Below are positions 8,732 through 60,737 of a stretch of DNA of 64,000 bases, piece after piece. This stretch comes from Candidatus Daviesbacteria bacterium (GTDB taxonomy: Bacteria > Patescibacteriota > Microgenomatia > Daviesbacterales > UBA10151). The position numbers and the translations under genes are program-made. The notes beneath the pieces are model-generated. The model was not told the DNA's origin and did not search any database. It saw only the letters and a program-made list of their open reading frames with translations. Within the stretch, counting starts at the first letter, position 1. Each line of letters opens with the position of its first letter. The stretch spans positions 84,368-148,367 of the forward strand of contig CP066688.1 of NCBI GenBank assembly GCA_016432425.1, in the 5' to 3' direction.

Positions 8732-8732
8732 T

Positions 8733-8749
8733 TAGTTTATTATAAACTA
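8733..8749. promoter_or_regulatory. 17-bp 8-1-8 palindrome TAGTTTAT-T-ATAAACTA in the 46-nt divergent promoter gap between the minus operon 1..8731 and the C-methyltransferase gene
   Basis: Read directly from the sequence. Confidence 0.25.
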
Positions 8750-8777
8750 CAAAATTGTTATTAGAATAACATAAATT

Positions 8778-22204: not shown

Positions 22205-22225
22205 ATAATGATAGAATAATACACT

Positions 22226-25173: not shown

Positions 25174-26589
25174 ATGGATAAAAACAAGATAACCTTTATT
25201 ACCTTAATAATCGTTCTTATTTGGCATATATTCATTTTTTTAAAATTACCACATCTTACCTGGTTACCAGGTTTTCTTAATACGTGGTTTACTGATCAGG
25301 GGTTAATTTTATACAAAGACTTAGTCGATCCACATTTTCCTCTTTCTTATGTCATCATGTATCCATTCCTCAAAATTACTAATTGGCATTTTGAAACAGA
25401 TCCAATATTAGCACTGGCAGTAGCTCTTTCAAGCTGTTGGGGAATCTATTATTTTGGCAGGAAAATTTTATCCCCCTTATCAATTATGATTGCTCTTTTC
25501 TTCTTCTCTGTATTTTACTGGTATTTTTCAACTTGGGTGCAAATATCTCAGGAGGGAATACAGGGGTTATTGACTATCCCCTTAGTCTTTTTTTTACTTA
25601 AGCTGCCGCATAAATTAAACTCCACCTCGACCTTATTATTTGGAGTTTATATCATTATCTTAGGGCTTATGGGACAAATAATAACTCCCTTAATCATTAC
25701 AGCCTTAGCGATTTTTATATACTTTCACAGAAGCCATCTTGTTTCGTTAATTATAGGATTATCCATACCCATCGCTCTAATTTCATTATATTTTCTCTAT
25801 CAAGGTGCTTTTTACGACTTTTTCTTCTGGAATATACCTTATTATTTAACCTATGCAAACTTAAACCAAACCACTACTGGATCACTACCTTGGCTTGATA
25901 TACTGGCATTTTTCTTACCTGTGCTCCTACTTTTTATATTGCTCTTAACCAAAATTTCTAAGGTCCCTACTATTATATTGTTACTACTTTCCCTCTCCAC
26001 AGTTCCCATGATCATTTTTAGCGTCTTTCATCCGCATCATTTTCTGTTCGCATTACCCCTCCTCTCAATATCCGCTGGTTATGCTTTGCCTAAATTGATT
26101 AAAATATCTCACTTTAACTTATTAACCTTTATCATTACCATTTCAGTTGTTTTCTATATAACGACTTATACTATACCCTGGCTAACATCTAAATTTATAC
26201 CCGGATGGAATCCCAAAATTTTAACAGCCGAAAAAGATCCTAAACAACAAGAGGCAATTGATTGGCTAAAAATAAATACCGATCTCAATATTAAAATTTT
26301 AGTAGCAGGCGACCCTTTGTTTTATTTTAGAAGTGAACGGCTGCCTGCCAACAACCGGTTTACAGTATTACCCTGGCATTACTTACCCCTCGATCAAACC
26401 CAAAAAGTAATGGTAGAAAAACCGCCGATCTTTTGGGTAATAGATAAAAATTATAGGGAAAGGTTAATTTCCGGCTGGAAAACTCCTCAGATTGATGAGT
26501 TTATTAAAAACGAATTAATATGTTATAAAATGGTTTTTGAAAATTCTGAGTGGGAGATCTGGCAAAAAACTTGCTTAAAGGACAGTTAA
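25174..26589 (+). CDS. Polytopic membrane protein, putative GT-C-type glycosyltransferase. Paralog of 23667..25136.
   Basis: 471 aa with the same architecture and shared motifs as 23667..25136. Confidence 0.45.
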   Translation: MDKNKITFITLIIVLIWHIFIFLKLPHLTWLPGFLNTWFTDQGLILYKDLVDPHFPLSYVIMYPFLKITNWHFETDPILALAVALSSCWGIYYFGRKILSPLSIMIALFFFSVFYWYFSTWVQISQEGIQGLLTIPLVFFLLKLPHKLNSTSTLLFGVYIIILGLMGQIITPLIITALAIFIYFHRSHLVSLIIGLSIPIALISLYFLYQGAFYDFFFWNIPYYLTYANLNQTTTGSLPWLDILAFFLPVLLLFILLLTKISKVPTIILLLLSLSTVPMIIFSVFHPHHFLFALPLLSISAGYALPKLIKISHFNLLTFIITISVVFYITTYTIPWLTSKFIPGWNPKILTAEKDPKQQEAIDWLKINTDLNIKILVAGDPLFYFRSERLPANNRFTVLPWHYLPLDQTQKVMVEKPPIFWVIDKNYRERLISGWKTPQIDEFIKNELICYKMVFENSEWEIWQKTCLKDS

Positions 26590-38714: not shown

Positions 38715-39236
38715 TCAAGTATTATTAAGTTTATCAGAGTAAATTTTAGTAGCAGCAACATCCTGATCTAACAATAGCCACCAGCCAGACTCCACCGGAA
38801 AATGGTCTCTTAAACCTTCCAAAATCTTCCGGTGTCTGTCAAAAAGGGCTGTCATGTCTTTTCTTTTTTCATTTAGATGATTGTTAATAATAAAATCAGT
38901 CAACACTCCCAAATAGCTGGTATATCTGCTGGTAGTATCCTCCAAGAGATAATCTTTATCAGTATAACTTTCTGAATTAATTACAAATTTTAGTTCAGCT
39001 AATCTTTTTTCAGTTAAGTTTTGATGGTAACTAACTTTGTCTTGATTGTTAAATTTTAAAAATAGTTGTAATTTCTCTGCGATTTTTTCAAAAAATCCTG
39101 CCACATGATTTACCTGTATGTTTATTGAAGAATTTCCCGATTCTTGTGCATATGCACTATTATTCAACACCAAGCCAAAAATAAAAATTATGGCAGTTAA
39201 AAAAATAAGCAAAAAATAACTTTTGATACTTCTCAT
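38715..39236 (-). CDS. Secreted hypothetical protein (signal peptide, alpha-helical)
   Basis: N-terminal hydrophobic segment ending in AYA-QE. No recognisable catalytic motif. Confidence 0.5.
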   Translation of the reverse strand: MRSIKSYFLLIFLTAIIFIFGLVLNNSAYAQESGNSSINIQVNHVAGFFEKIAEKLQLFLKFNNQDKVSYHQNLTEKRLAELKFVINSESYTDKDYLLEDTTSRYTSYLGVLTDFIINNHLNEKRKDMTALFDRHRKILEGLRDHFPVESGWWLLLDQDVAATKIYSDKLNNT

Positions 39237-39274: not shown

Positions 39275-41302
39275 ATGAGAAGTAAACTAGACAAATTAAA
39301 GAAACTTATTAAACAAAATCCCGGATTTGCGATTATCACCTTTATCTATTTAGCAACTTTCTTCTATATGATGCCTTTAAAAAATCAATGTTTTCAGGAT
39401 GATTGGGCTTATTCCCAATCGGTGAGAAATTTTCTACAAACAGGTAATTTTAAAATCTCCGAATGGTCATCAGCTTCATTAATTTTTCAAATGCTTTGGG
39501 GCAGTTTATTTGCCAAAATTGCTGGCGGATTTTCTTTGAAAATTTTACATCTATCTACTATATCAATTATGTACATAGGATTAATCTTTTTTTACTTAAC
39601 TTTAAAACGGTTAATCTCCGATGAAACCAGAGCTGTTATTTTTACACTATCTCTATTATTTTTCCCTTGGGTATTTCAGTTTACATATAGTTTTTTAACT
39701 GATGTTCCTTATATATCATTAATGTTTATAGCGTTATATTTTTATATAGCTGCCTTACAAACCAATAAAAAAATCCTTTTTTTGCTGGGTAGTTTATTTG
39801 CTGGTTTTGCATATCTGATTAGGCAACTTGGTATTGTTTTACCAGCAGCTATATTTTTAACTCTAATTTATCAAAGTTTGGTTAACAAAAAAATAAAGCT
39901 AATGGAAATAATTACTGCCCTAACACCTTTTTTGATTATCTCTTTTTTATATAACCAATGGTTAACAAATGGAGGCATCACCCTCTCACAGTACCAATCA
40001 GGTTTTGATCAGAGATTTAAAATCTCTACTGCGCCTTATCTATTACCAATTAGACTTGGCTTTGCCGGCATTACTAATATGGTCTATGCAGAGTTTATTA
40101 AACGGGGTGTTTTCTTCTTTCACCATATTATCGGATACCTTTTCCCGATATTTTTTATTTTTGCCATTAATTTAAAGGGGATTAAAAATTTCTTTATTCA
40201 CCATCACCAACCCATTTTGATGACAACCCTAATTTATCTTTTTTTTCTCATGATTGAAAATGTTTTTCATTTTGGCCGTCAAGAATTTAGTATAGGGATA
40301 CCCAGGCTAGTTACTAATTGGGCCCATGTTGGACCTATTGATTGGGTAAATAGCTGGATTTATCTAGTATTTATATCCTTAATATTTTTTTTGCCAGTCA
40401 TGGGAGCCACCTTCAAACATTTATCAAATTTATTATTTGCCAAAAGAAATAAACCTGCTAAGTCTGCTTTTAAAACATTGATAATTTTATTACTGTTAGT
40501 TTTTATCGTGAGAATTATTCAGGAATTTATCGCTATTTTTAAACCTCGCGTACCACAAGAGACATCTTTTTTAGAAAGCATTAAAATATATTTCCACGCC
40601 ACCTTTACTACGGCAGGTGGCGACATTGTTTATAATAATTGGATTGTTTTCTTTATATTATTCTTATTGAGTTTAATCATTATCTATTCCTTAACACATC
40701 TTAAGTTTAAGACTGAAGGAAAAACGATTGATAAAGCAATACTGTTTTTGTGGTTAGCTTTTTTTATACAAAATTGTATTCTAATATTTTTTATGTATTT
40801 TTATTGGGGACAATATATCATTGCAATTGTTCCTTTTATTATTCTATGGATAGCCTATTTTACTAGATTCTGGAAAATTAATTTGATGCAAGCAATAATA
40901 GTAATTTGCTTAATGGCTATTTTTTCAGTATCAGCTACTAAAGCTAGATACGATGATATCGGTATGCAGTGGGAAATTGGCACTCAAATGGTCCAAAAGG
41001 GAATTGAGCCTGTCAGTGTCTTTGTGGGTGAAGAATCCTGGTTGCCATGGTGGTATTATGAAGAAACACTAAAACAAGCTGTTGAACAACTAGGTGGGGA
41101 TAAATTTAAATTACCCATGAGAAGCACCTGGAGAGTGGTAAAACCAAACACTTTAAACTCCTATGGTATTATGGAGGTTCCTTTGAACTTTAAGCCCTCA
41201 GATAATCCTGACTTGAATATTATTGTAGATTCTGGTATTTATTATTCAGGTATTTTCACCCAAAAAAGAGCCATTGGTTATCAAAGTGCACCACAAAAGT
41301 AG
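39275..41302 (+). CDS. GT-C (PMT/ArnT-like) membrane glycosyltransferase
   Basis: 675 aa, polytopic. Loop motif CFQDDWAYSQSV. Soluble C-terminal domain. Confidence 0.6.
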   Translation: MRSKLDKLKKLIKQNPGFAIITFIYLATFFYMMPLKNQCFQDDWAYSQSVRNFLQTGNFKISEWSSASLIFQMLWGSLFAKIAGGFSLKILHLSTISIMYIGLIFFYLTLKRLISDETRAVIFTLSLLFFPWVFQFTYSFLTDVPYISLMFIALYFYIAALQTNKKILFLLGSLFAGFAYLIRQLGIVLPAAIFLTLIYQSLVNKKIKLMEIITALTPFLIISFLYNQWLTNGGITLSQYQSGFDQRFKISTAPYLLPIRLGFAGITNMVYAEFIKRGVFFFHHIIGYLFPIFFIFAINLKGIKNFFIHHHQPILMTTLIYLFFLMIENVFHFGRQEFSIGIPRLVTNWAHVGPIDWVNSWIYLVFISLIFFLPVMGATFKHLSNLLFAKRNKPAKSAFKTLIILLLLVFIVRIIQEFIAIFKPRVPQETSFLESIKIYFHATFTTAGGDIVYNNWIVFFILFLLSLIIIYSLTHLKFKTEGKTIDKAILFLWLAFFIQNCILIFFMYFYWGQYIIAIVPFIILWIAYFTRFWKINLMQAIIVICLMAIFSVSATKARYDDIGMQWEIGTQMVQKGIEPVSVFVGEESWLPWWYYEETLKQAVEQLGGDKFKLPMRSTWRVVKPNTLNSYGIMEVPLNFKPSDNPDLNIIVDSGIYYSGIFTQKRAIGYQSAPQK

Positions 41303-41303
41303 A

Positions 41304-42680
41304 ATGAAGAACATACAAAAAGCAATAAAATCTTTCTCCCAAAAAAAGATCCTCGTCGTCGGTGATTTAATGCTAGATTTATATACCTATGGCACCGTTA
41401 ATCGTATATCCCCTGAAGCACCTGTACCAATTTTACTAAAAACTGACGAAAAATACTCACCTGGAGGCGCAGCCAATGTAGCTAATAATTTAAGGGGATT
41501 AGGAGCGGAAGTAGCTGTTTGTGGAATAGCAGGTGAGGATTCTAACGGGGAGAGATTATTGGTTTTATTAAATGAACTAGGCATTGATACCAAAGCAGTC
41601 ATTAAAACTCCAGATTTTCCGACTACATTAAAACAAAGATTAATCGCCGAAAATCGCCAAATAGTTAGGGTCGACGAAGAAAACATCCAAGAATTAAATC
41701 CTAAGGAGCAAAAAGATATTTTAACTTGGATAGAATTTTTAGTTGGTAAATACGATGCCATCATTTTGTCAGATTATGCCAAGGGTGTATTCACTAAAAA
41801 CTTAACATCTGAAATTATTAAATTAGCAAAAAAACATAATAAGTTGATAACTGCAGATATCAAACCTGTCAACAAATCGCTATTTAAAGGCGCCCATCTA
41901 ATTTTTCCGAATTTGAAAGAAGCAGAAGAAATGACCGGAGGTAACACCATTAATGAAATGGGGGCTCATCTAGTGAAATATTTTAACTGTGATGTAGTAA
42001 TCACTAAAGGAGCAGAAGGAATGGCAGTCTTTCAGCGCGACAACATTTATTTTGAGATACCTGGAAGAAAAATTGAAGTTTTTGATGTGAGTGGTGCAGG
42101 GGATACAGTAATAGCCGTTATTACGCTAGGTTTAATTAGTAATCTGAACCTCAACGACTCTGCCAATTTGGCAAATTTTGCAGGTAGTATCGTAGTACAA
42201 AAAGCTGGTACTGCCTCTATTAAGCTAGAAGAACTAGAGGCTTACATCAACATAGGTAAGTATCATATTGATAATGTTGAAATAGTACCAAAAGTTTGGG
42301 GGTATGAGAAATGGCTAGAAAATAATAGCCGGTATTGCTCTAAATTGCTTTTTTTAAAACAGGATTATCAATGTAGTTTGCACTATCATAAAGTTAAAGA
42401 TGAGCTATTTTTGGTCACCTCTGGACATGTCCGATTTGAACTGGGAAAAGAGATTATACATCTGATGCCTGGTAGTTTTATCAGAGTTCCTCCTAAAACT
42501 TTACACCGATATAGAGGAATTGTAGACTCAGAAATACTGGAAGTAAGTACTCACCATAGCGAAAAAGACTCCTACAGATTAGAACCCAGTAGAAAAATCG
42601 AAATAGACAATACTAAATCTTTTCATAAGGCTGTGATTGTTGACAGCAAGGCTATCATTCCAGATGAAAGTACACTTTAA
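41304..42680 (+). CDS. Fusion protein. N-terminal D-glycero-beta-D-manno-heptose-7-phosphate kinase (HldE domain I, PfkB family). C-terminal PMI-type-II-like cupin domain replacing the usual adenylyltransferase domain.
   Basis: Kinase domain: ILVVGDLMLDLYTYG..RISPEAPVP...GGAANVANN...DVSGAGDTVIAV. Cupin domain: WGYEKW...SLHYHKVKDELFLVTSGH...LMPGSFIRVPPKTLHRYRG...ILEVSTHHSEKDSYRLE. This aligns motif for motif with the AlgA/ManC C-terminal PMI cupin (WG..HHHR.EHW.VVSG...GES..IP.G..HRL.N.G...EV..G.Y..EDDI.R.ED). Confidence 0.8.
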   Translation: MKNIQKAIKSFSQKKILVVGDLMLDLYTYGTVNRISPEAPVPILLKTDEKYSPGGAANVANNLRGLGAEVAVCGIAGEDSNGERLLVLLNELGIDTKAVIKTPDFPTTLKQRLIAENRQIVRVDEENIQELNPKEQKDILTWIEFLVGKYDAIILSDYAKGVFTKNLTSEIIKLAKKHNKLITADIKPVNKSLFKGAHLIFPNLKEAEEMTGGNTINEMGAHLVKYFNCDVVITKGAEGMAVFQRDNIYFEIPGRKIEVFDVSGAGDTVIAVITLGLISNLNLNDSANLANFAGSIVVQKAGTASIKLEELEAYINIGKYHIDNVEIVPKVWGYEKWLENNSRYCSKLLFLKQDYQCSLHYHKVKDELFLVTSGHVRFELGKEIIHLMPGSFIRVPPKTLHRYRGIVDSEILEVSTHHSEKDSYRLEPSRKIEIDNTKSFHKAVIVDSKAIIPDESTL

Positions 42681-43239
42681 AACGCCCCAGAAAACCCTGG
42701 TCAAAGCTGTTTTCTTAGATCGCGATGGAACTATCAACAATAATCAAACGGGGTATACTTATAAAATTAACGATTTTGTCTGCCTACCAGGAGTCATAGA
42801 ATCATTAGTTAAGTTTTCAAAGACTTCCTACAAAATTATCATTCTTACTAACCAATCTGGAATAGGCAGAAAATATTTTAGTTTCTCTCAATTCCATAAA
42901 TTAAATAATTGGATGCTAAAAGAGTTTAAAAAAAATAATGTTAGAATAGATAAAGTTTTTTTCTGCCCTCATCATCCACAAAATAACTGCTCTTGCCGCA
43001 AACCAAAACCTGGTCTAATAATACAAGCTGTACAAACTTTTGGAATATCTTTAGAAGAAAGTTGGCTAATCGGGGATGACGAAAGGGATATTATTTTAGC
43101 CAAAACAGTTAACTTACGGTCAATTAAAATAGGCGCCAAGATAAGTAGAAAATTAAAGTTAGAGCCCAATTATTATGTAAAAAATTTGCCGGAAGCCTTG
43201 GATATAATTACCAATCAAGATAGACTAAGTTTGTTATAA
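42664..43239 (+). CDS. gmhB: D-glycero-D-manno-heptose 1,7-bisphosphate phosphatase (HAD-IIIA family)
   Basis: KAVFLDRDGTIN, ILTNQSGIGR, CxC RKPKPG, LIGDDERD. These are the GmhB/HisB-N family signatures. Start chosen at MKVHFK. Confidence 0.75.
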   Translation: MKVHFKTPQKTLVKAVFLDRDGTINNNQTGYTYKINDFVCLPGVIESLVKFSKTSYKIIILTNQSGIGRKYFSFSQFHKLNNWMLKEFKKNNVRIDKVFFCPHHPQNNCSCRKPKPGLIIQAVQTFGISLEESWLIGDDERDIILAKTVNLRSIKIGAKISRKLKLEPNYYVKNLPEALDIITNQDRLSLL

Positions 43240-44510
43240 GCATTTATATGAGCAAGCAAATCTTTCATATTATAAGTGGTCACATCAGTCATTTTAGGTT
43301 TCGGCAAACCCATTATTTTATACATGTACGGTAGAACCTCTTTAACCTTTAACTCTGACATACATAAATTATCTATACAGGGAGACCTCCTGGCATTATA
43401 AGTATTAATACAAGGATCACAAGCTAAACCTGCAGACAAAGAAACGTTTCTGGTACTTAAGGGGGCATATAATAAGGGAGTTTCCGGACCAAATAAAGAA
43501 ATTATATAAATTGGAGTCATGGCAGCAAAATGGGCCGGGCCGCTATCATTGGTTACCATTAAATGCGAGATGTTGTAAAGGGTAAGCAATTCATAAATAT
43601 CAGTTTGTCCGGCAAAATTTATACAAAGAGGGTGATTAATTTTATTTTCTACATCTTGAATATAATTAATCTCTTTGGCAGTTCCAATTAAAATAATTGC
43701 CGTGTTGCCTTGTTTTAATATTTCCTGAGCTAATTTAGCAAAATACTCTTTTGGCCATTTTCTTTCGGGAACAAAATCACTGGCATGAGTGTTAAAAATA
43801 ACTAACTTCATGGAAGGATTAATTTTCGGATTTAAAGATTGTATTTTCTTCCATAAATTTTCAATTTCATTTTTAGAAGATTTGTAGCGGGGTACCCTCA
43901 GGTTACCAGTTAATCTCTTTTTTAATAGAGGTATAGAATTAAATGGCTCTTTAATAGATTTTGCTAAAGTTAAAAAAGCTAAACTGGTATGTAAATAATG
44001 ATTATAGATTACCTTATGAGTAAAAAAATCTCCTCTATACAATCCTTCCATGTGGTATTTATAAAACCCAATATGGATGGGTGATTTTATCAAATAACCC
44101 AGTATAGCTGATATTCGAGAGAATAATTCAAAATCTACAATTACATCGATTTTTTGATCTCTTAACATTTTAGCTGCTTTCAAAGTATCAAATATCAAAT
44201 GGGGAATTGACGAATTATTAATTAAGTAGATATTTTTTTCTGGAAAAGATTTTAATATTTTAACAATCTCCTCATTTCCTGAGAATGTTAAAAAATACAA
44301 TTGCGCCTCTGGATATTCTTTTTTAATAAAATTAATTGCCGGGAAAGATAAAATTGTACTACCCATTTCCGAAATTTTAATAAATAAAATTTTTTTTATT
44401 TTCTTTGGCTCTCTTCTTCTTCTGGTAACTCTAGACCATTGGCTTAAAAACCAGCAAATTCTGGAACCGATAATTCTGTCTATATTTCTGACTCTATTAG
44501 GATCGATCAT
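43215..44510 (-). CDS. GT9 family glycosyltransferase (heptosyltransferase-like)
   Basis: ILFIKISEMGSTILSFPAI at the N-terminus. C-terminal VTNDSGPAHFAAMTPIYIISLFGP, which is the WaaC/WaaF-family signature. Confidence 0.75.
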   Translation of the reverse strand: MIDPNRVRNIDRIIGSRICWFLSQWSRVTRRRREPKKIKKILFIKISEMGSTILSFPAINFIKKEYPEAQLYFLTFSGNEEIVKILKSFPEKNIYLINNSSIPHLIFDTLKAAKMLRDQKIDVIVDFELFSRISAILGYLIKSPIHIGFYKYHMEGLYRGDFFTHKVIYNHYLHTSLAFLTLAKSIKEPFNSIPLLKKRLTGNLRVPRYKSSKNEIENLWKKIQSLNPKINPSMKLVIFNTHASDFVPERKWPKEYFAKLAQEILKQGNTAIILIGTAKEINYIQDVENKINHPLCINFAGQTDIYELLTLYNISHLMVTNDSGPAHFAAMTPIYIISLFGPETPLLYAPLSTRNVSLSAGLACDPCINTYNARRSPCIDNLCMSELKVKEVLPYMYKIMGLPKPKMTDVTTYNMKDLLAHINAYNKLSLS

Positions 44511-50620: not shown

Positions 50621-51662
50621 ATACTTTAATTGTTTCCTGAGCTGTTTTTTCCCAAGAAAATTTTTTAGCCCGCTCTAATCCTAACTGAGACATTTTTTGT
50701 AAGATTGTTTTATCATTTAATACTGCTGTTAAAATATTAACTAACTTGTCCTGATCCCGAGGATCAAAAACTATTCCTGCCTCACCCACCACTTCCGGTA
50801 GGGCTCCGGCATTAGAGGAAATCACCGGGCAGCCACAGGCAAATGCCTGCAGTACGGGAAAACCAAAACCTTCATACAGTGAGGGCTGGATATACAAAGT
50901 AGCTAAATTGTAAAATCCCACCAACTCATCATCACTAATCCACCCTGGCCTAAATACTTTATCTTCCAAACCAAAATCTTTAATTTTTTGGCTGGTTTCC
51001 TTGAGGCTCCTAAGCTCCGGATGGTCAATGTTTTCTACTTTTTTTAAAAAAACTTCCCCAACTAAACTCAATTTTAAATCCGGAAATTTTTCAGTTATTT
51101 TTTTGAAACTGTCAATTAAAAAAGGTAAATTTTTAGAATAATTAGCATCCCCTACAAATAGTAAAAATTTATCCTGTAAATTAAATTTATTTTTAATTTT
51201 TAATTTCTGGGACTCAGATAAAATTTTAAAATCGCGAGAGTAAGCTAAGTAAGTTACTGTAATTTTATTGGGCGGGACAGCTAAATATTTGGTGACATTT
51301 TTTTTCGAATCCTGCGAGTTAACAATAATGGCCTTGCACTCCTGCAAAGACAATTTTTGTAACCATAAATTAATTTTTCCTCGGAGACCTGCCGGAAATC
51401 CTTCTTTAAAAATCAGAGGGATGGTATCATGAATTGTCACCACAGTGGGTTTCTTTTTAAAAAAGGGTAGGGTTCTAAAATAAAAATCAAACCAGGGGTA
51501 ATGGACCAGATCGACATTTGGCGGAGGGTTAATGGTTTCAAATTCCACTACTTTAAGATCTGGATTTTGTTTAAATTGGGCTAACAAATTACTGGTATAA
51601 ACTCCAATTCCTCTATTTTTGTGTCCAGTTTTTAAAGGTAGCGTACAAAAACCTACTGTCAT
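50595..51662 (-). CDS. GT4 family (GT-B) glycosyltransferase
   Basis: [37 protein letters not shown]. Confidence 0.8.
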
Positions 51663-52528
51663 AATCTTTTTCCTGTTAAATATCGAAAATATGCCCTGGG
51701 AAAACGTAAGGCAGAAAAAAAAGAAAAGATTAGCCCTTGGAAACCGTCCAATATTCCTTTATGACGAAACAAAGTCAGTAAAAACCACCAGCTAGATTTA
51801 ATAAAATAAAAATTGATCAGCTGCCAGATATTTTTCCCCACCTTAGTTTTTTCAAGATCATCAGCAATTAAATTAATATAGCGGCTATTTCTTTTTAAAT
51901 ACCTTTCAAAAGTTGGGTCAGCCATATGATAAAGATCATTTTGCAGCCAGCCTACTTTACCATCAACCGTAATCTGCTCGTGAACATCAAGACAGGGGAA
52001 ATAAGCTTTATTTTTACGGACTAACCTAATCACTCCATCCGGATAAACTCCGCCATAGCGTAAATATTTCCCCAAGAAATAATTTAGACGGGGTATAAAA
52101 AAAGCAGCATATTCCTTTGAACTATCGCCAATGCGGCCATCCCGCTCTTCCAGTAATTTTTGATGCCTCAAAAAGAGTCTCCTATTTTTTAAATCTCGCT
52201 GGTAAATTTCCACCTCTTCATTTGTCATCTCAATTACCTTTCTTATTTCCTGTGCCAAAGCTTTAGAAACTCGCTCATCCGCATCAAGCTGTAAAATCCA
52301 TTCATTTTGAGCCAAATCCAGCGCCTTTTGTTTGTTGATATGAAAAATCGGCGGGTTGTCTTTGATTAAAACTTTGGCTCCAAAGGAGCGGGCAATCTCA
52401 ACTGTTTTGTCAGCAGAGCTTCCGTCTACAATCACAATCTCATCGGTAATTTCTTTAATAGAATTCAGACAAGCCGGCAGATTTTTTTCTTCGTTAAAAG
52501 TGGCCAGGACTACTGATAATTTTTTCAA
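51659..52528 (-). CDS. GT2 family glycosyltransferase
   Basis: LSVVLATFNEEKNL...IVDGSSADKT...QLDADE. Confidence 0.75.
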   Translation of the reverse strand: MKKLSVVLATFNEEKNLPACLNSIKEITDEIVIVDGSSADKTVEIARSFGAKVLIKDNPPIFHINKQKALDLAQNEWILQLDADERVSKALAQEIRKVIEMTNEEVEIYQRDLKNRRLFLRHQKLLEERDGRIGDSSKEYAAFFIPRLNYFLGKYLRYGGVYPDGVIRLVRKNKAYFPCLDVHEQITVDGKVGWLQNDLYHMADPTFERYLKRNSRYINLIADDLEKTKVGKNIWQLINFYFIKSSWWFLLTLFRHKGILDGFQGLIFSFFSALRFPRAYFRYLTGKRL

Positions 52529-54192
52529 AACTGCCCTCCTTCAATCATGACAAAAGCCGGCTCTCCGCTAGGAAAGTCTACCTGATCTAAGATTTTAACA
52601 TTTTTTGGGGATGCCTCACCTGACATGATAAATAAAGTTCCGGGTGAATTTAGCTCTGGCAGAGTTGCTTCATGAAATTCGTATTTGTCAAAAGACCTCA
52701 CCGTCCCAAAATTAAATTGATCCCGGGGAGAAAGTGCTGCTTGGGGCTGATACTTTCTGGGATCGTATTGTTTGTAAAATAACACCAAAATATAGGGCTG
52801 GTCGAAGCGGTCGGTAATTACTACTTTTTCGTATTTACTTTCATATTGATTTAATTTTTGAACCATTTCGGAAAATCCATATTCCCAAGCCAAAGGGTAT
52901 CTTTGAGGATAAATTATGTAATAAGACTGCATAAAACGAACAAATTCAAAAACCAATACAGTCGTAATTAACCCCACCCCTAAAATCCGCCAGTGACTTT
53001 TTAACCAATTAATAGTTTCCCCCATCCCCAACCCCATTATTAAGGTTAAAGGAACGACCAAATTAAGTGCCCGCAGGGCATGAGGAGTCTGGTAAGTCAT
53101 TGCTGAGGCCAGGGGAGCAACCAAAATCCAAATCAGCAGAATTTTTTTATGAGCGAATTGCTTTTTAATTACAGCTATTCCTCCCATTGTTAAAAACAAA
53201 AATTCAATTAAATAAAACTGGCCAACTTCGGGTACTTTATTGCGAATTAGCGGATCACCATTAATAAATAAAAAGCTACCGCTAAAATGGTCCAGGTAAT
53301 GGCCTAAAAATGCCGGAATAAAGGCAGTTAATTTATTGTGCAAAGAAACGCTTAATTTTGACTTAGGGTTCTCATGCTCTCCCCTGAGCTGCTGAATACG
53401 GGAAATAAGTCCTTGGTCAGAGAAAAAAGTGAGCCCGGTGAATCTGGCGCTACCGGTGCCGGAAAGAAATTGCCCGGTTAAAGGCAGCGTCAAAATTAGT
53501 AACAAAACTACTATAATAACCAGCTTAAATTTATATTTTAGTGAAGGGAACCTTCTTTCCTTTAAAAATAAAGATCGCACTGCTTTAATTAGCGGCTGAT
53601 AGTAAAAAATTAATAACATTAACCCCAATACCGGCACTATTAATCTGGGACTTTGGTAGGTATACATCGAAGCCAAAAACGAAATGAGACTAAATAAAAG
53701 TAAGCCATAATTTTTTAAACCTTTGATAAATAGTAATATACCCAAAGTGATAAAAAAGGTAGCTACATTAGTTTCCCAACCTCCCCGGGAAAATTGCAGG
53801 TGCCAGGGGGAAATCGCCAAAAGGAAGGCACTCCAGAGACCAAAAATTTTGTGTTGAAAAATTTCTCTGCCCAGAAGAAAAGTTAGATAAACAGTTAAAA
53901 TCCCCAAAAGGGCTGAAGGGAGCCTGACTGCCCATTCATTTAAACCAAAAAGGGCGACAAATGGCATGACCATATAAAAATACAGGCCTGGTTTCCAGTC
54001 TCCGAAGGATTTAAAAGTCAAAGGAAGAAAACTGCCATATTCATCCTTGCCGGTTTGCAAAAGTGAATAAGCATTGTAACCAATTGAAGCCTCGTCAGCA
54101 TTTAAACCGGCCGGAAAATTATTTAAAGCAACCAGCCGCAAAACTGCTGCCAAGACAATAATTAAAATTAGTATTATTTTTGGTTTAACCAT
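52525..54192 (-). CDS. GT-C glycosyltransferase, GT39/PMT_2 (ArnT-like) family, tandem paralog 1 of 5
   Basis: LNADEASIGYNAYSLLQTGKDEYGSFLP...PFVALFGLNEWAVRLPSA...ISPWHLQFSR. Confidence 0.75.
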   Translation of the reverse strand: MVKPKIILILIIVLAAVLRLVALNNFPAGLNADEASIGYNAYSLLQTGKDEYGSFLPLTFKSFGDWKPGLYFYMVMPFVALFGLNEWAVRLPSALLGILTVYLTFLLGREIFQHKIFGLWSAFLLAISPWHLQFSRGGWETNVATFFITLGILLFIKGLKNYGLLLFSLISFLASMYTYQSPRLIVPVLGLMLLIFYYQPLIKAVRSLFLKERRFPSLKYKFKLVIIVVLLLILTLPLTGQFLSGTGSARFTGLTFFSDQGLISRIQQLRGEHENPKSKLSVSLHNKLTAFIPAFLGHYLDHFSGSFLFINGDPLIRNKVPEVGQFYLIEFLFLTMGGIAVIKKQFAHKKILLIWILVAPLASAMTYQTPHALRALNLVVPLTLIMGLGMGETINWLKSHWRILGVGLITTVLVFEFVRFMQSYYIIYPQRYPLAWEYGFSEMVQKLNQYESKYEKVVITDRFDQPYILVLFYKQYDPRKYQPQAALSPRDQFNFGTVRSFDKYEFHEATLPELNSPGTLFIMSGEASPKNVKILDQVDFPSGEPAFVMIEGGQF

Positions 54193-55825
54193 CTCCTCTT
54201 TCCACTAATTTAAAGACTTCTTCTCCATTTAGAAATTTAACTCTATTTAAAATATTAAATTCTTTAAACGGCACAATATCTTTATCCGGCAGCTCATCCG
54301 GACTGCCCACAAATAAAGTATTTTTTAGATTTCGATCGGCCGGCCAATAAAGATGACGGAATTCTATCTTGCCGATTTTTTTGACCGTCCCAACATCACT
54401 ACCAAATTGATCCAAATTGTATTGGCCTTGGAAATTTAATCTGTCAGGATTGTAGAATAAATAATAAATATAAGGTTGCCCGTAAACGTCAGTGACTATA
54501 ATTTTTGGATAATTATTTTGAATTTTGTAGACTTGTTCAAATGTTTGCTTGTATCCATACAACCAATAGTTAGAATATTCAACAGGAGCATGCACAAAAT
54601 AACGGTCTAAATAAATAATAAAATTGGAAAGCATGACAACTATGACAACTCCATAAACTAAAGACCGCCAACTTACCCTTAACCTATTGATTAGAGTTAA
54701 TAAATAATACAGCCCGGCCGCTTCCAATATAACATAAGGGACTACCATGTTCAGGGCCCGTAAAATGCTAATCAAATCCCGCGATAATACAGCTGGCAGA
54801 GGTGCTATTAAAAGCCAACCAAATATTAAACCCACTCCCTTTTGATTTTTAAGCAAATGGAATATTCCCAGCGGAATCAATAAGGCACTATAATAGTAAA
54901 AAAATCCCAAGTCCGGAATCCGATGTCTTTCTTCTAAAGTTCCTTTGACAAATAAGGTGGATGGGGAAAAGTAAATGGAATATCGCTCCACAAGTCCCCG
55001 GGCATAACTCCACCACTCTCCATATAGAATTTGAAACTGGGCACTGTTAGCAGGTAACTTACTCTCTAAAGAGAGTTTTTGAATTTCATTCTGAGAACGC
55101 TGATAAGCAAAAAAATTAAAAGTTTTAAGTCTTGTTGCCTGGCCGCTAAAAAGAGTTACCATTAGTAGCAATAAAAAGACTGTTATTACCACAGCTGCCG
55201 GCATTAAACTACGCCAGCGAATTTGACGATAACTGGTTATTACCAAAAGTAGGATAAACAGTGGGACAAACAAACGGGATGCTTGATAAGTAAATAAGGA
55301 TAAACCAAAAATTAAGGCAGAAAAGATGAGCAGTTTTCTGCTCTTTAATCCCTTTAAAAACAAATATGCCCCCAATACATTCATGGTTAAAGCTGCATTT
55401 GCCTCAAAGGCAGCCCGGGAAAATTGCAGGTGCCAGGGGGAAATCGCCAAAGTAAAACTGGCTAACAAACCCAGAGTTTTGTTTTGCAAGAGTTCTTTAA
55501 CCAAAGAAAAAATCAACCAGACTAAGGCTACCCCCAAGATGGCTGAAGGGAGCCTGACTGCCCATTCATTTAAACCAAAGAGGGCGACAAAGGGAACTGT
55601 CAAATAAATATAAGCTGCCGGTTTCCAGTCACCAAAAGATTTTAAGTTGTCAGGTAAGAAATTACCATATTCATCACGGCCAGTTTGGGAAATATCATAA
55701 GCATTAACTCCAATTGAGGCCTCATCCCAAGTCAGCCCCGGAGGATTGGAATTAAGTTGCCAAAATCGCAGTACTACACTGAGTAAAATAATTAGCACTA
55801 AAGAGTATTTTTTAACTAGTTCCAC
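54185..55825 (-). CDS. GT-C glycosyltransferase, GT39/PMT_2 family, tandem paralog 2 of 5
   Basis: LTWDEASIGVNAYDISQTGRDEYGNFLP...PFVALFGLNEWAVRLPSAILGVALVWLIFSLVK. Confidence 0.75.
   Translation of the reverse strand: MELVKKYSLVLIILLSVVLRFWQLNSNPPGLTWDEASIGVNAYDISQTGRDEYGNFLPDNLKSFGDWKPAAYIYLTVPFVALFGLNEWAVRLPSAILGVALVWLIFSLVKELLQNKTLGLLASFTLAISPWHLQFSRAAFEANAALTMNVLGAYLFLKGLKSRKLLIFSALIFGLSLFTYQASRLFVPLFILLLVITSYRQIRWRSLMPAAVVITVFLLLLMVTLFSGQATRLKTFNFFAYQRSQNEIQKLSLESKLPANSAQFQILYGEWWSYARGLVERYSIYFSPSTLFVKGTLEERHRIPDLGFFYYYSALLIPLGIFHLLKNQKGVGLIFGWLLIAPLPAVLSRDLISILRALNMVVPYVILEAAGLYYLLTLINRLRVSWRSLVYGVVIVVMLSNFIIYLDRYFVHAPVEYSNYWLYGYKQTFEQVYKIQNNYPKIIVTDVYGQPYIYYLFYNPDRLNFQGQYNLDQFGSDVGTVKKIGKIEFRHLYWPADRNLKNTLFVGSPDELPDKDIVPFKEFNILNRVKFLNGEEVFKLVERGDG
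55496..55615. repeat. 120-nt tract identical to 57126..57245, inside adjacent tandem PMT_2 paralogs (gene-conversion tract)
   Basis: Read directly from the sequence: tttaaccaaagaaaaaatcaaccagactaaggctacccccaagatggctgaagggagcctgactgcccattcatttaaaccaaagagggcgacaaagggaactgtcaaataaatataagc occurs twice. A 38-nt identical tract also links paralogs 1 and 2, at 53784..53821 and 55413..55450. Confidence 0.85.
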
Positions 55826-55841
55826 TATCTAATTGTACAAA

Positions 55842-57449
55842 TTACAGCTCGACGATATCAAATGCCGGATCTCCATTTAAAAATTTAATTTGTTGCAAGA
55901 GTTTTCCTTGATCAAAATTAGTCGGGCTGGTAATTAATAAACACCGCTCAGTTTCTTTACAGTTAGCTTTTTGTTTAACTTCCCAATCGTTAAGGAAGTA
56001 ATATTTGCTGAAACGGTCCACCCAATACCAATCACTACGGAAGTATCTAATTAAATTTGGATCGCTCAAATATTTTGCAGGATCGTATGGCAGATAAAAT
56101 AACAAAAACTCGTGCGGCTCACCGTAAGCTTTAGTCAGGTAAATTTTATGATAATTACTACCTTCTTTTTTAATAAACTCGACTGCTTCTTTATACCCAT
56201 ACTGCCAGGCCCAAGAATAGTTTTTTCTATAACTACCGCTGTAATTTTGCCAAAAGAGGACCAAACTAATTAACAAACCAGCAATTATAATTAAGTTTAA
56301 CCCAATTTTAAATCGGGAAGCCTGGTTGGCTAATCCGGCAACGGCATAAGCACTAATAAATGCTAAAGGTACAGTGGCGGTGAGGCTCCGCAAAGCATGG
56401 GGGGCATCCCGGGTCACCGCTGCCGGAATAAAAGAAAAAAAGAGCCACATTAAAGTAATCCACTGCCATTTTTTTCTTTCTTTTAAAAACAAAAAAACAC
56501 CATAGATTAAAAAAGGTAAGAGCAATGGATAAACCAACCCTATTCCCGGAATACTGAATTGAAAATTAGAGCCACCGTTTAAAAAAAGAAAATTAGGGTG
56601 AAAATGACTAAAATAATTTTGTATTACCTGGGGGATAAAATAAGTTACTTTGTTGTAGACCAAAGTTACGGCAGGAGGGGGCAAAGCAGAACTTCCCCGC
56701 AATTCATTAATCTGATTAATTGCACCTTGGTCTAAAATCGTGGTCCATTTATATCGGGCAGAGGAATCTTGCAACAAAGCCTTAGGCAAAGCCAGTGCAA
56801 AAAAAGTCAAAAAAATAACTAATGACATAACAGTAATTTTTTTATATTTTGCCAGTTGCGGATAATGAATTAACCCTAAACTTAAAACTAGCAGTGGAAT
56901 AATGATCCGGCTGCTATTGTAAGAAAAAATGGTTAAACCAAAAGTAATGGCACTAAACACTAAAAAGTATTTACTCTTTACACCTCTCACAAAAAAATAT
57001 ACCCCTAAAGTAGTTAAAAAAAGTGATAGCTGAGCCTCCAGAGCAATTCGGGATAAAATAATTGGCCAGGGCAGGACAGCAGCTACAAAAGCGGCCCAAA
57101 GAGCGGTTTTTTCTTCGCTCCATTGTTTAACCAAAGAAAAAATCAACCAGACTAAGGCTACCCCCAAGATGGCTGAAGGGAGCCTGACTGCCCATTCATT
57201 TAAACCAAAGAGGGCGACAAAGGGAACTGTCAAATAAATATAAGCCGGCAGTTTATAATCGCCATAAATTCTAAAAGTTAAAGGCATAAACTCTCCCCAT
57301 TCATCCCGTCCGGTTCTTAAAATTGAAGCAGCATTATATCCAATAGAAACTTCATCCCAATTTAATGAAGGCGGCAGCTGTGGTAGCTGCCAAAACCGCA
57401 ACACGGCAGCCAAAATTACAATCATGATTAACAATAATTTTGCTCTCAT
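55842..57449 (-). CDS. GT-C glycosyltransferase, GT39/PMT_2 family, tandem paralog 3 of 5
   Basis: LNWDEVSIGYNAASILRTGRDEWGEFMP...PFVALFGLNEWAVRLPSAILGVALVWLIFSLVK. Confidence 0.75.
   Translation of the reverse strand: MRAKLLLIMIVILAAVLRFWQLPQLPPSLNWDEVSIGYNAASILRTGRDEWGEFMPLTFRIYGDYKLPAYIYLTVPFVALFGLNEWAVRLPSAILGVALVWLIFSLVKQWSEEKTALWAAFVAAVLPWPIILSRIALEAQLSLFLTTLGVYFFVRGVKSKYFLVFSAITFGLTIFSYNSSRIIIPLLVLSLGLIHYPQLAKYKKITVMSLVIFLTFFALALPKALLQDSSARYKWTTILDQGAINQINELRGSSALPPPAVTLVYNKVTYFIPQVIQNYFSHFHPNFLFLNGGSNFQFSIPGIGLVYPLLLPFLIYGVFLFLKERKKWQWITLMWLFFSFIPAAVTRDAPHALRSLTATVPLAFISAYAVAGLANQASRFKIGLNLIIIAGLLISLVLFWQNYSGSYRKNYSWAWQYGYKEAVEFIKKEGSNYHKIYLTKAYGEPHEFLLFYLPYDPAKYLSDPNLIRYFRSDWYWVDRFSKYYFLNDWEVKQKANCKETERCLLITSPTNFDQGKLLQQIKFLNGDPAFDIVEL
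57126..57245. repeat. Second copy of the 120-nt identical tract (partner of 55496..55615)
   Basis: Read directly from the sequence. Confidence 0.85.
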
Positions 57450-59086
57450 TGATTAGTGGGTACTAAACGATACAATATCTTGCCGGAAGGTGAATAAACA
57501 TCCAAAATTGACTGAACCTGAGAGGGAAAATCTTCCGGCTCTGAAACTATCAAGGCATCTTTCCTGAGACTGTCTTTTTTGCGCCAATCTATTCCCTCAA
57601 AATAAAAATTGCCCAAATTCCAACTCTCCAGCTGATCTACATATAATTTATTGGATTTTTCATATCTTAACCAATTCGGGGAAGATTTTTGAAAAACTTT
57701 GGGGTCCATTTTCTCGTAAAAAGCGACAAATATTTGCGGTTCAGTAAAATGTTTAGAGATAACAATCTGGCTGTAGCGATCCTTCACAGATAAAATTTTT
57801 TCAAAGACTGTATCATAACCAAAACGCACATTATCAATTGGTCGTTGAGGTAATTTAATAAAGTAAAAGTGTAAGAAAAAAATAAACTGGGTAAACAGTA
57901 TCACTGTGACAATTCTTCCCCATGGTAAATTGGCAAATTTAGTCTTTAGGTAATCAATTAGACTAGCTGCACCAATCGCCGATATTATAACGGTTAGAGG
58001 GAGAAATGTCGGCACCCGATTAGCATTCAGACTTCCGGTAGCCAAAGCTGCACCTACTGGAGAGACTAAAAACCACCAAATTATTATTTCTTTATTAGCT
58101 AGTTTTTTAAAGAAAATTTCCTTAATAGCAAATATCCAAAAAATAAGCTCTACTGTATAAAGCAGCGCAAACCTGGGAAAATTTAAATAGGTGTTATCCG
58201 GCCTTCCTCCGGTAAAAAAGAAAGTAGGAGAAAAATAAGACAGGTAATTTTCTGTTAAATTATTTTTGATAAATAAAAATTTATTGTCAAAAATTTTATC
58301 TAATAAAGGAGGCAGTGGAGAAGTACCTTTGGATTTAAAATAACTCATGATTTGTTCACTGCTAAAAATTCCTACATCGGAAGCTCTGGTGGAAATGTTT
58401 CCCCAATTAATAAGGAGGGGGGATAAGAAAATAAAAAGACCCAAACTTAAATAAATAATTCGCTTTTTAGATTCTGCCCGCAGAAAAAATGCACCTAATA
58501 TAAACAATACCAGCAAGACTCGAAAAGAGTGGTAGGTATAAAAAGTTAACCCCCAAAATATAATGGTGGGAAGAAAAAATTTGTTTTCTTTTTTTAATTT
58601 TAGAAAAAATAATAACCCCAAACTGAAAGTTAAAATTCCTAATCCACCTTCCCAGGCAGTACGGGAAATTTGTATAGACCAGGGGGAAATAGCCAGCAAA
58701 AATGCTGCCCACAAAGCAATATTTTCTTTTTGGAAAAGTTCCTTAGTTAAAAAATATGCTACCAAAACAGTGAGTATGCCTACCAGGGCAGCAGGTAACC
58801 TGACCGAGACCATGTTCAAATCAAAAATGAGTAGCGAGGGAACTGTTAAATAAGTATAAAGAGGCGGCTTAAAATCTCCAAACCCCCGAGGATTAATCGG
58901 TAAAGTTTCTCCCCATTCATCCTTGCCGGTTTGCAAAAGCGAATAAGCGCTGTAACCTTGTTGAGCTTCATCACCGGTAAAACCATTGGGGAATTTATCC
59001 AAACTAATTAGTCTGACAGCTGCAGCTAAAATAATTATTAACAATAAGATAATTTTACTCGTAGAGAAGATTTGCTTAATTTTCAT
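57446..59086 (-). CDS. GT-C glycosyltransferase, GT39/PMT_2 family, tandem paralog 4 of 5
   Basis: FTGDEAQQGYSAYSLLQTGKDEWGETLP...ISPWSIQISR. Confidence 0.75.
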   Translation of the reverse strand: MKIKQIFSTSKIILLLIIILAAAVRLISLDKFPNGFTGDEAQQGYSAYSLLQTGKDEWGETLPINPRGFGDFKPPLYTYLTVPSLLIFDLNMVSVRLPAALVGILTVLVAYFLTKELFQKENIALWAAFLLAISPWSIQISRTAWEGGLGILTFSLGLLFFLKLKKENKFFLPTIIFWGLTFYTYHSFRVLLVLFILGAFFLRAESKKRIIYLSLGLFIFLSPLLINWGNISTRASDVGIFSSEQIMSYFKSKGTSPLPPLLDKIFDNKFLFIKNNLTENYLSYFSPTFFFTGGRPDNTYLNFPRFALLYTVELIFWIFAIKEIFFKKLANKEIIIWWFLVSPVGAALATGSLNANRVPTFLPLTVIISAIGAASLIDYLKTKFANLPWGRIVTVILFTQFIFFLHFYFIKLPQRPIDNVRFGYDTVFEKILSVKDRYSQIVISKHFTEPQIFVAFYEKMDPKVFQKSSPNWLRYEKSNKLYVDQLESWNLGNFYFEGIDWRKKDSLRKDALIVSEPEDFPSQVQSILDVYSPSGKILYRLVPTNQ

Positions 59087-60737
59087 TTGGATTAGCCGTT
59101 ACTAAATAAAAAATTACTTCCCCGCTGGGGGAGCGAATTGTCTTTACTAATCTCAAATTAGGGTTATCTAAAATTTTAGGATTAGTAACATCCTCTCTAC
59201 TGGAAGCCAGGAAAAGCTGTCCATTTTTTAAATTATTTTCAAATGGTCCAGCGAACTTTCCAAAATAATATTTTTTCTCTAAAGCAAATCCGTCAAAATT
59301 AGTAGTAATATCTTGAATAACTTTATCACCGGAAAATTGCTGATGAAATTTATTGGGATCATATTTCGTCCAAAATAAAAACCTAATTAAAGATGGCTCA
59401 TAACTATTATTAATATAAATTTGGGAGTATTGGTCCTCCTTTGCAGCTAAGTATTGCATTGGCTCTTTAAATCCAAAATTCCATGCCCTCCACGACTCTT
59501 TAGGGTAATGTTCAAAATAGCGATGCAGGAAAAAGGTAAAATTCACTATTCCTAAAATAATTAGACCCAATGCCAAATACCTTCTGAAAGATCCCTGATT
59601 TATTTTAGCAAGTAAATCATTTATCCCCCAGCCAATTAAAATAGACAACGGTGCCAACATTAAAAAATTCCTGGTAGCATGGAATCCCCCATCAAAAGTT
59701 AAAGCTGCCGGGATGGGGGAAATTAGTAGCCAACCAAATACCACCCATTTTTCTTTTTCTTTTTTATACAATAGAAACCAAATCCCCGCTATTAATGGAA
59801 TTAATTCATAAAAGTAAAATTGCCCCATTCCATGGACAGATTGGCGGAAATTAGGATCTCCATTTAAAAATAAAAACTCCGGAGAAAAAGCCCGTAAATA
59901 ATTTAAGGTAAACACTTGCAAATAAACCACTGGTTTATTGTGAAACACTTTTTCCAGATTGAAAGGGAGATTTTCATTTTGCTGGGCGAGTTGGACTTGA
60001 TCTTTTAATGATTGTTCGGAAAAAATACTAATTAAATTAAATCTTGCTCCGGCAGTTCCCGAAAGCCAATTACTTCCATAAGGAGCTAGTACTACCAAAA
60101 ATATTAGACCTGCCAAAAGATATTTGGGGAGGTTTTTAAATAATTCATTTCGATAAAGATAAACTAGCATTAGCACCAGTAGCGGCATGAATAAAGTAGC
60201 CGTACTATAAATATAAGGCGTTAAAGCAAATAATATGGCTGAAAAATAAAACCAGAGGTAATTTTTGACTCCCTTAAGAAAAAGAAAAGTTGCCCAAATT
60301 AAAAATGCCAGCAGCATGGTAACTTCAAAACCGGCCCGGGAAAAATGTATGTGCCAGGGAGAAATAGTAAGGATTAGGGCGGCGAATAGTCCTATTTTCT
60401 CACCAAATAAATGTTTTGCTAAGAAGAATAATCCTCCAATACCTAAAATCCCCCAGAACGCGGCTGGAATTCGCACTCCCCATTCGTTTAAACCAAAAAG
60501 TCCAATTGTGGGCACAGCTGAATATAAAAATAGAGGCGCCCGATATTCTGACAGAGAATGGAAAAATACCGGCAATTTTTGGCCGTACAGATCTTGCCCT
60601 GTTTTTAAAATGGAATAAGCCTGGTAACCTACGTCCAGTTCATCTCCAAACAGCTCAACCGGCACTTTATCCAGTTGATAAACCCGCAGGGTGATAGCCA
60701 GGATTAAACTTACAAGTAACAGGAAATATTTTTTCAA
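59076..60737 (-). CDS. GT-C glycosyltransferase, GT39/PMT_2 family, tandem paralog 5 of 5
   Basis: LFGDELDVGYQAYSILKTGQDLYGQKLP...GLFGLNEWGVRIPAA...ISPWHIHFSR. Confidence 0.75.
   Translation of the reverse strand: MKKYFLLLVSLILAITLRVYQLDKVPVELFGDELDVGYQAYSILKTGQDLYGQKLPVFFHSLSEYRAPLFLYSAVPTIGLFGLNEWGVRIPAAFWGILGIGGLFFLAKHLFGEKIGLFAALILTISPWHIHFSRAGFEVTMLLAFLIWATFLFLKGVKNYLWFYFSAILFALTPYIYSTATLFMPLLVLMLVYLYRNELFKNLPKYLLAGLIFLVVLAPYGSNWLSGTAGARFNLISIFSEQSLKDQVQLAQQNENLPFNLEKVFHNKPVVYLQVFTLNYLRAFSPEFLFLNGDPNFRQSVHGMGQFYFYELIPLIAGIWFLLYKKEKEKWVVFGWLLISPIPAALTFDGGFHATRNFLMLAPLSILIGWGINDLLAKINQGSFRRYLALGLIILGIVNFTFFLHRYFEHYPKESWRAWNFGFKEPMQYLAAKEDQYSQIYINNSYEPSLIRFLFWTKYDPNKFHQQFSGDKVIQDITTNFDGFALEKKYYFGKFAGPFENNLKNGQLFLASSREDVTNPKILDNPNLRLVKTIRSPSGEVIFYLVTANPNEN

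Follow-up and report, generated by a model that had tools for sequence, protein, structure and literature searches.

An old tandem array of GT-C glycosyltransferase genes in a Candidatus Daviesbacteria genome, with short identical tracts best explained by gene conversion

How do neighbouring genes that have diverged nearly to saturation come to share stretches of DNA that are identical to the last nucleotide? This question is raised by five tandem glycosyltransferase genes, here called P1 to P5, in a 64,000-nucleotide (nt) stretch of a Candidatus Daviesbacteria genome (contig CP066688.1, positions 84,368 to 148,367; hereafter the window), for which an initial annotation had proposed ongoing gene conversion inside an expanding array under diversifying selection. 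The comparisons presented here favor a plainer account, in which an old and stable set of five specialised membrane glycosyltransferases would carry occasional patches of conversion. Taken as a whole, the reading of an ancient, conserved GT-C array overlaid by sporadic, homogenising gene conversion in its N-terminal core is regarded as highly probable.

The array consists of consecutive open reading frames (ORFs) on the minus strand, joined by overlaps of 4-11 nt or, in one case, separated by a 16-nt gap; as had been annotated, the genes are co-directional, encode 535-555 amino acids (aa) and all belong to the Pfam family PMT_2. Their clade assignments (C1 to C5) derive from the tree described below.

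52525-54192, minus strand: P1, a 555-aa GT-C (PMT_2) glycosyltransferase of clade C1 (ORF; PMT_2 at 6.6e-9, PMT at 8.6e-8; tree)
54185-55825, minus strand: P2, a 546-aa GT-C glycosyltransferase of clade C2 (ORF, Pfam, AlphaFold2 model, matches to GT-C folds)
55842-57449, minus strand: P3, a 535-aa GT-C glycosyltransferase of clade C3 (ORF, Pfam, tree)
57446-59086, minus strand: P4, a 546-aa GT-C glycosyltransferase of clade C4 (ORF, Pfam, tree)
59076-60737, minus strand: P5, a 553-aa GT-C glycosyltransferase of clade C5 (ORF, Pfam, tree)

Pairwise identity among the five is 30-39% for protein and 44-51% for DNA in a codon alignment, close to saturation. The sequence blocks said to be common to all five are exact only in part: GYNAYS occurs in P1 only, PFVALFGLNEWAVRLPSA in P1-P3 and ISPWHLQFSR in P1 and P2, so that the Asp-Glu pair of the first outer loop, which follows the first transmembrane segment (TM1; D33/E34 in P1 numbering), is the one block invariant in all five paralogs. 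Against this background of divergence, four sets of exact repeats stand out, two of which (the 120-nt and 38-nt tracts) had been noticed initially and two of which were found in addition.

55496-55615, minus strand: P2 copy of a 120-nt tract, codons 71-110, encoding AYIYLTVPFVALFGLNEWAVRLPSAILGVALVWLIFSLVK (TM2-turn-TM3)
57126-57245, minus strand: P3 copy of the same tract, codons 69-108, exactly identical to the P2 copy
53911-53949 (P1), 55541-55579 (P2) and 57171-57209 (P3), minus strand: 39-nt core FGLNEWAVRLPSA, an exact repeat
53784-53821 (P1) and 55414-55451 (P2), minus strand: 38-nt tract LAISPWHLQFSR, an exact repeat
54039-54063 (P1) and 58915-58939 (P4), minus strand: 25-nt tract encoding LLQTGKDE, an exact repeat

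For the P2/P3 tract, 120 nt is the maximal extent of identity, and it comprises 40 whole codons in frame; its borders are sharp, with identity falling to background (~50%) from the very next codon on both sides. The 39-nt core lies inside a 54-nt stretch that P1 and P2 share with 2 mismatches. No exact repeat of 22 nt or more was found in the whole window besides the tracts of the array. At positions where two paralogs agree in amino acid, their codons agree as well in ~45% of cases, and the longest runs of identical codons in pairs of paralogs free of tracts are 3-4. When alignment columns were shuffled, none of 2000 replicates reached the 120 nt of P2/P3 (maximum 25 nt), and when amino acid identity was held fixed while synonymous identity was permuted, none of 20000 reached its 40 codons (maximum 21 codons). 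The same conditional permutation gave p ~0.001 for the 13-codon runs of P1/P2 and P1/P3, and p ~0.009 for the 8-codon run of P1/P4. The tracts are located in the conserved N-terminal core (aa 43-136). In a structural model of P2, the 120-nt tract corresponds to a helix (71-83), a short turn (LNEW...) and a second helix (87-113), i.e., the TM2-turn-TM3 element, which is the most conserved motif of this PMT_2-type family. Since they are sited in this conserved core, the tracts would homogenise the paralogs rather than diversify them, and the earlier suggestion that conversion acts here as a source of variation is reversed: differences are erased.

The history of the tracts can be read from related loci in other genomes (designated by L numbers). 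A search for the 39-nt core across 84 sequences (83 loci and the window), allowing up to 9 mismatches, gave no match outside the window with fewer than 6 differences; the orthologs differ at 6-9 of the 39 positions and use other synonymous codons. The closest relative, L084 (74% DNA identity; its orthologs of P1, P2 and P3 are termed R1, R2 and R3), lacks the long tract, its longest being 20 nt between R2 and R1, and L005 and L085 are likewise devoid of a long P2/P3 tract. Moreover, in the sequence flanking the tract, P2 is closest to clade C2 and P3 to clade C3, while the tract itself is identical between the two genes. The mosaic of complete identity within a conserved core is thus an observed pattern, and gene conversion, as had been proposed, provides the best explanation for it, judging from the differing synonymous codons of orthologs, the tract-free L084 and the flanks that retain their own identity.

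A broader survey indicates that such events are infrequent. Among 131 loci with at least two family genes (859 paralog pairs, some of the loci being redundant), exact tracts of at least 24 nt between paralogs are rare, nearly all of them in register and within approximately aa 40-195; the longest are those of the window (120 nt), L048 (65 nt), L031 (41 nt) and L001 (38 nt), the last three coming from independent assemblies. Once the window is excluded, paralogs in the same genome are as similar as paralogs in different genomes, both in amino acids (0.484 vs 0.482) and in synonymous codons (0.460 vs 0.460). As same-genome paralogs in the relatives are not more alike, conversion is sporadic rather than sustained and without lasting concerted evolution; pervasive concerted evolution was considered as a candidate and rejected on the same figures.

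The age of the array was assessed by comparing its members with their counterparts elsewhere. Homologs of P2 in other genomes are 57-73% identical to it, versus 30-39% for its own neighbours in the array. A neighbour-joining tree built from the protein sequence on the C-terminal side of the tract separates P1-P5 into five clades, each containing orthologs from other, Daviesbacteria-like loci (L001, L002, L003, L005, L006, L007 and others) in matching gene order; identity is 0.60 within clades, against 0.32 between clades. L005/L085 has the five-gene array in the same uninterrupted form, and in L001 and L003 all five genes recur with two additional genes behind the second of them, one for a GT2-PMT_2 fusion and one for a YfhO-like protein. 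Because the five clades have orthologs in other genomes, the duplications predate the divergence of those genomes; tree and gene order together show an array that is old and stable, with its order kept in relatives. Even the regions that differ most between paralogs and clades (aa 211-310 and aa 406-545) are well conserved within clades. Across related loci, family genes range from 1 to 6 per locus among those sampled, and tandem sets of 2-6 are the rule among those fetched. The "expanding" array of the initial annotation does not survive these comparisons.

Several further features of the related arrays were recorded. The inserted fusion protein (~800 aa) and the YfhO-like protein (~560 aa) lie between the clade-4 and clade-3 genes at L001 4198-8315, L003 4345-8401 and L084 2-1198; the window and L005/L085 have neither. 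In L023, a single ORF of 1118 aa (6606-9962) matches the family profile and resembles two adjacent GT-C genes fused, which may reflect a real fusion or a lost stop codon. Many contigs bearing arrays (L005, L008, L009, L012, L016 and others) are labelled in public records as "uncultured Gammaproteobacteria bacterium" or "Clostridia bacterium", seemingly placeholder or wrong names.

Selection was evaluated from ortholog pairs with L084 instead of paralog pairs, as the DNA identity of 44-51% between paralogs implies saturated synonymous sites. The ratio of nonsynonymous to synonymous divergence (dN/dS) is 0.10 for P2/R2, 0.11 for P1/R1 (a partial gene) and 0.20 for P3/R3, values to be read with the caveat that the synonymous divergence of these pairs (dS 1.1-2.3) is itself near saturation and that R3 belongs to another sub-branch of C3 than P3. 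No 60-codon window in these pairs has a ratio of nonsynonymous to synonymous proportions (pN/pS) above 0.7. The ortholog comparisons with L084 therefore give no sign of the diversifying selection that had been invoked, and the conservation of paralog-specific regions within clades likewise speaks against it. Apart from this, clade C3 comprises two sub-types at array position 3, one in L084 (1191-2837) and L001 (8308-9996), the loci compared with P3, and the other in the window, L002, L003, L005 and L006; with pN at 0.34 for P3/R3 and 0.16 for P2/R2, the third slot may have a separate history of its own.

Four other accounts of the identical tracts deserve consideration. An artefact of assembly, polishing or manual curation, by which the P3 (or P2) copy was written in from its paralog, would be favored by the source of the sequence, a metagenome-assembled genome (MAG), by the failure of the searches to find a second assembly of the species and by the closeness of 120 nt to the length of a short read or a large k-mer. 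Assemblers do not, however, create identity, and a read from P2 would mismatch the flanks of P3 at ~50% of positions beyond the tract and so could not be placed there. The tracts are also several and varied in length and decay (120 nt exact, 54 nt with 2 mismatches, 38 nt, 25 nt), shorter in-register tracts occur in the same region in independent assemblies from other laboratories, and P2 and P3 are both intact and in frame; an artefact is consequently judged unlikely. The account given initially, in which the array has recently been expanding, diversifying selection acts on it and conversion shuffles the determinants of specificity, could draw on the variation from 1 to 6 family genes per locus and on the position of the genes in a surface-glycan island, but it is largely refuted by the five ancient orthologous clades in conserved order, dN/dS values of 0.10-0.20 without a window near 1, the within-clade conservation of paralog-specific regions, and tracts that sit in the conserved TM core, outside the variable loop and the C-terminal domain. 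It is regarded as very unlikely.

Less plausible again is selection on the nucleotide sequence itself, such as an RNA or DNA element embedded in several paralogs. In its favor, the 120-nt tract is somewhat richer in G and C (GC 0.425; 0.45 at third codon positions, GC3) than the array genes (GC 0.35-0.39; GC3 0.31-0.37). Since orthologs use different synonymous codons at the same codons, varying freely at 6-9 of 39 positions, nucleotide-level selection would not account for the identity; furthermore, P4 and P5 do not have the shared sequence, L084 lacks the tract, the window contains no Rfam match, and no conserved covarying structure or motif was seen. The most improbable alternative is programmed, cassette-like segmental conversion for surface variation, as in pilE/pilS or vlsE. 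Tandem homologs and several tracts in one genome are reminiscent of such systems, but every gene of the array is intact over its full length, which leaves no silent cassettes, the tracts occupy a membrane-embedded conserved core, and same-genome paralogs of relatives show no excess similarity.

Certain observations nevertheless weigh against the reading of an ancient array with sporadic conversion. The 120-nt tract is known from one assembled MAG sequence, and the searches for independent copies returned little: the best other P2 homolog in a protein search was 73% identical, that is, no second assembly of the same species; a 27-mer of the core had no exact match in metagenome contigs; an exact look-up of P2 in a contig index gave no record; and a P3-based metagenome scan reached 61% identity at best. 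The P1/P4 tract of 25 nt is only marginally beyond chance. The direction of the 120-nt conversion leans weakly toward P2 as the donor, the tract being 0.63 identical to C2 and 0.60 to C3 (28/40 for R2 of L084 and 23/40 for R3). Lastly, which donor sugar and acceptor the paralogs use, and how they divide the work between them, we infer from knowledge of the family.

If the reading of sporadic conversion is followed through, non-reciprocal homologous recombination between neighbouring paralogs (intrachromosomal gene conversion) would overwrite short in-register segments, seeded at the few islands where similarity was already high. The most recent event would be the 40-codon TM2-TM3 tract of P2 and P3, and older or shorter events would tie P1 to P2 and P3, and possibly P1 to P4; the TM2-TM3 hairpin may be functionally exchangeable from one paralog to another, which would allow the tracts to persist. 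At the level of function, the ArnC/GtrB-like GT2 enzymes of the island would make polyprenyl-phosphate sugar donors, from which each paralog may take a sugar and attach it, on the outer side of the membrane, to a surface glycan or glycoprotein, every paralog serving a position or acceptor of its own. In the first outer loop, the invariant Asp-Glu would serve as the catalytic acid pair, and both the middle loop peculiar to each paralog (aa 211-310) and the soluble domain at the C-terminus (aa 406-545) may determine specificity. More tentatively, the array could constitute a fixed assembly line that builds, outside the cytoplasm, an envelope glycan peculiar to the lineage, and the tracts a natural domain swap, with TM2-turn-TM3 acting as a shared module for handling the lipid carrier or donor and the middle loop and C-terminal domain conferring specificity; this is a possibility to which less than even weight is given.

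As to the proteins themselves, P1-P5 are GT-C-fold membrane glycosyltransferases of the PMT_2 superfamily, similar to ArnT, PMT and STT3. P2 is identical to NCBI QQG43513.1, which is annotated as a "glycosyltransferase family 39 protein" and encoded on an 820,589-bp contig of a Candidatus Daviesbacteria MAG. All five paralogs match Pfam PMT_2 above the gathering score (36.6-60 bits; cut-off 26.1) and three of them (P1, P2, P4) also match PMT (32.5-35.3 bits; cut-off 22.7), the matches being confined to the N-terminal 130-230 residues. Each paralog has 7-10 hydrophobic segments, and the Asp-Glu pair is invariant across 62 homologs as well (D34/E35). The AlphaFold2 model of P2, for which these homologs served as input, is of high confidence (predicted local distance difference test, pLDDT, 93.6; predicted template modelling score, pTM, 0.92) and has helices all through residues 2-416. 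A Foldseek search of this model against the PDB gave 27 matches at E<=1e-3, every one of them a GT-C enzyme (STT3, PglB, AglB, ArnT, ALG12, ALG9, Pmt4, Pmt1/Pmt2, DPY19 and EmbC), with a probability of 1.0, template modelling (TM) scores of ~0.5 and 13-15% identity; STT3, ArnT and ALG12 ranked above Pmt4 and Pmt1/2. In a sequence search of the PDB, ArnT, assigned to CAZy family GT83, was the only solved relative (2.4e-5).

The name given to the array initially, "GT39/PMT_2-like GT-C paralogs", accordingly holds for the tandem GT-C (PMT_2) genes and not for strict GT39. "GT39" is an NCBI label, and membership of P1-P5 in CAZy GT39 in the strict sense is not shown: the Pfam matches are N-terminal only, the PMT C-terminal domain was not detected, and the PMTs are no closer than ArnT and STT3. 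A four-TM C-terminal domain (PF16192) is a hallmark of the PMT family; at E<=0.01, neither this domain nor a MIR domain was reported in any of the five paralogs. NCBIfam models yielded matches to Agl23 and archaeal STT3 only, all below threshold.

Comparison with characterized systems helps to place the array. It resembles ArnT (PDB 5EZM/5F15), the undecaprenyl-phosphate-L-Ara4N:lipid A transferase, in sequence (aligned across the TM2-TM3 region and further), in fold (Foldseek TM score ~0.53 over the whole chain), in size (~550 aa) and layout (N-terminal multi-TM region and C-terminal soluble domain), and in context, given the ArnC-like donor synthase in the array's island. It differs in that ArnT is only 13-14% identical to the array protein and occurs as one gene per operon instead of five, and in its acceptor, since a bacterium of the candidate phyla radiation (CPR) is without lipid A. 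With the PMTs (GT39; PF02366/PF13231) the array shares its Pfam matches (PMT_2 in 5/5, PMT in 3/5), the Asp-Glu pair and the NCBI GT39 name, whereas it matches them in the N-terminal part only, has no C-terminal 4-TM/MIR domain and is structurally less like Pmt4 and Pmt1/2 than like STT3 and ArnT. Three-component periplasmic glycosylation systems (GtrA/GtrB/GtrC, and CsbB-YfhO and YkcC-YkcB of Firmicutes) combine a GT2 polyprenyl-phosphate sugar synthase, a flipping step and an outer GT-C transferase. The window has a GtrB/ArnC homolog and the relatives' arrays enclose YfhO-like genes; in contrast to these systems, no GtrA-family flippase was found among the window ORFs scanned, and five GT-C genes stand in series where each such system has one.

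Ectopic gene conversion between bacterial paralogs is familiar from tufA/tufB and rRNA operons. The array tracts are alike in being in register and fully identical, with sharp borders and phylogenetic conflict between tract and flank; they differ in that the paralogs are only ~50% identical in DNA, that only short islands are converted and that concerted evolution is absent. On this comparison, the tracts appear to be of the ordinary kind of gene conversion and not the sign of a growing or diversifying array, and they suggest that conversion can act between paralogs ~50% identical in DNA if a short island of similarity is available. The 120-nt direct repeats could in turn mediate in-frame deletions or fusions. 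The more useful by-product is the recognition that tandem GT-C arrays are an apparently general and apparently undescribed feature of envelope biosynthesis in Microgenomates; literature searches for GT39/PMT arrays in CPR/Microgenomates and for gene conversion in bacterial glycosyltransferase arrays found nothing relevant. As Microgenomates are uncultivated, envelope gene arrays bear on a little-known cell surface, although neither the prevalence of the arrays nor conversion at low identity would surprise a specialist.

The surroundings of the array are in keeping with a role in glycan synthesis, to which nearly all of the window is devoted. Judged by gene content, the window is an envelope-glycan biosynthesis island of a Microgenomates (CPR) genome, and it includes the following genes.

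51659-52528, minus strand: GT2 glycosyltransferase, the next gene downstream of the array and likewise its neighbour in L001, L002 and L003
60808-62470, minus strand: two genes for GT2 glycosyltransferases, adjoining the array on its upstream side and likewise present there in L001
17103-18041, plus strand: ArnC/GtrB-like polyprenyl-phosphate glycosyltransferase (312 aa, two C-terminal hydrophobic segments)
10902-13106, 26575-28599, 31063-33180 and 39275-41302: four further PMT_2 genes outside the array

Related loci follow the gene order GT2-GT2, GT-C genes, GT2-GT4-unknown-Wzx-GT2. The product of 17103-18041 matches ArnC (1.1e-44), GtrB sll0501 (6.9e-33) and DPMS (1.4e-15) over its full length in PDB sequence searches and is a candidate for the enzyme that supplies the GT-C enzymes with a lipid-linked sugar donor; its C-terminal hydrophobic segments are also seen in two further GT2 proteins (5103-6041 and 18038-18964). 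Together with the five array genes, the window holds nine PMT_2 GT-C genes, besides ~12 GT2, four complete GT4 (and one more cut at the window edge) and one GT9 glycosyltransferases. Also present are a Wzx-like flippase, two LPG_synthase_TM proteins, sugar-nucleotide dehydratase/epimerase genes, a PfkB-cupin kinase, a HAD phosphatase, a polysaccharide deacetylase, a YdjC protein and ~9 methyltransferases; Rfam and tRNA scans of the window were empty. For a genome with a main contig of 820 kb, this is a very high proportion of DNA given over to glycans.

Some additional features of the island merit mention. The GT9 "heptosyltransferase" gene (43215-44510) adjoins genes for the PfkB kinase-cupin (41274-42680) and the HAD phosphatase (42637-43239), an arrangement that resembles a module for heptose activation and transfer and that is unexpected in a CPR bacterium, presumed to be without lipopolysaccharide. 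Three genes encode large multi-TM proteins (2312-4402, 696 aa; 6041-8731, 896 aa; 19760-22243, 827 aa), the latter two being paralogous; two of the three bear a C-terminal F5/8 type C (discoidin) domain and the third a weak NADase-type glycan-binding match. These proteins have no glycosyltransferase Pfam match, and their layout (a multi-TM N-terminus and a soluble sugar-binding C-terminus) resembles that of GT-C enzymes. A divergent pair of paralogs, 23667-25136 (minus strand) and 25174-26589 (plus strand), encodes proteins with 10-11 TM segments and 25% identity that have no Pfam match. An inverted exact match of at least 18 nt, which may be due to chance, links a GT2 gene (approximately 15849-15870) to a small DUF5667 gene ~23 kb away (approximately 39173-39194). 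Finally, the PMT_2 genes at 26575-28599 and 31063-33180 form a second pair (674 and 705 aa, 38% identical), with a GDSL-like lipase/acylhydrolase and a methyltransferase between them, and share a 21-nt exact repeat (27484 and 31999), the sole repeat longer than 20 nt in the window apart from those of the array.

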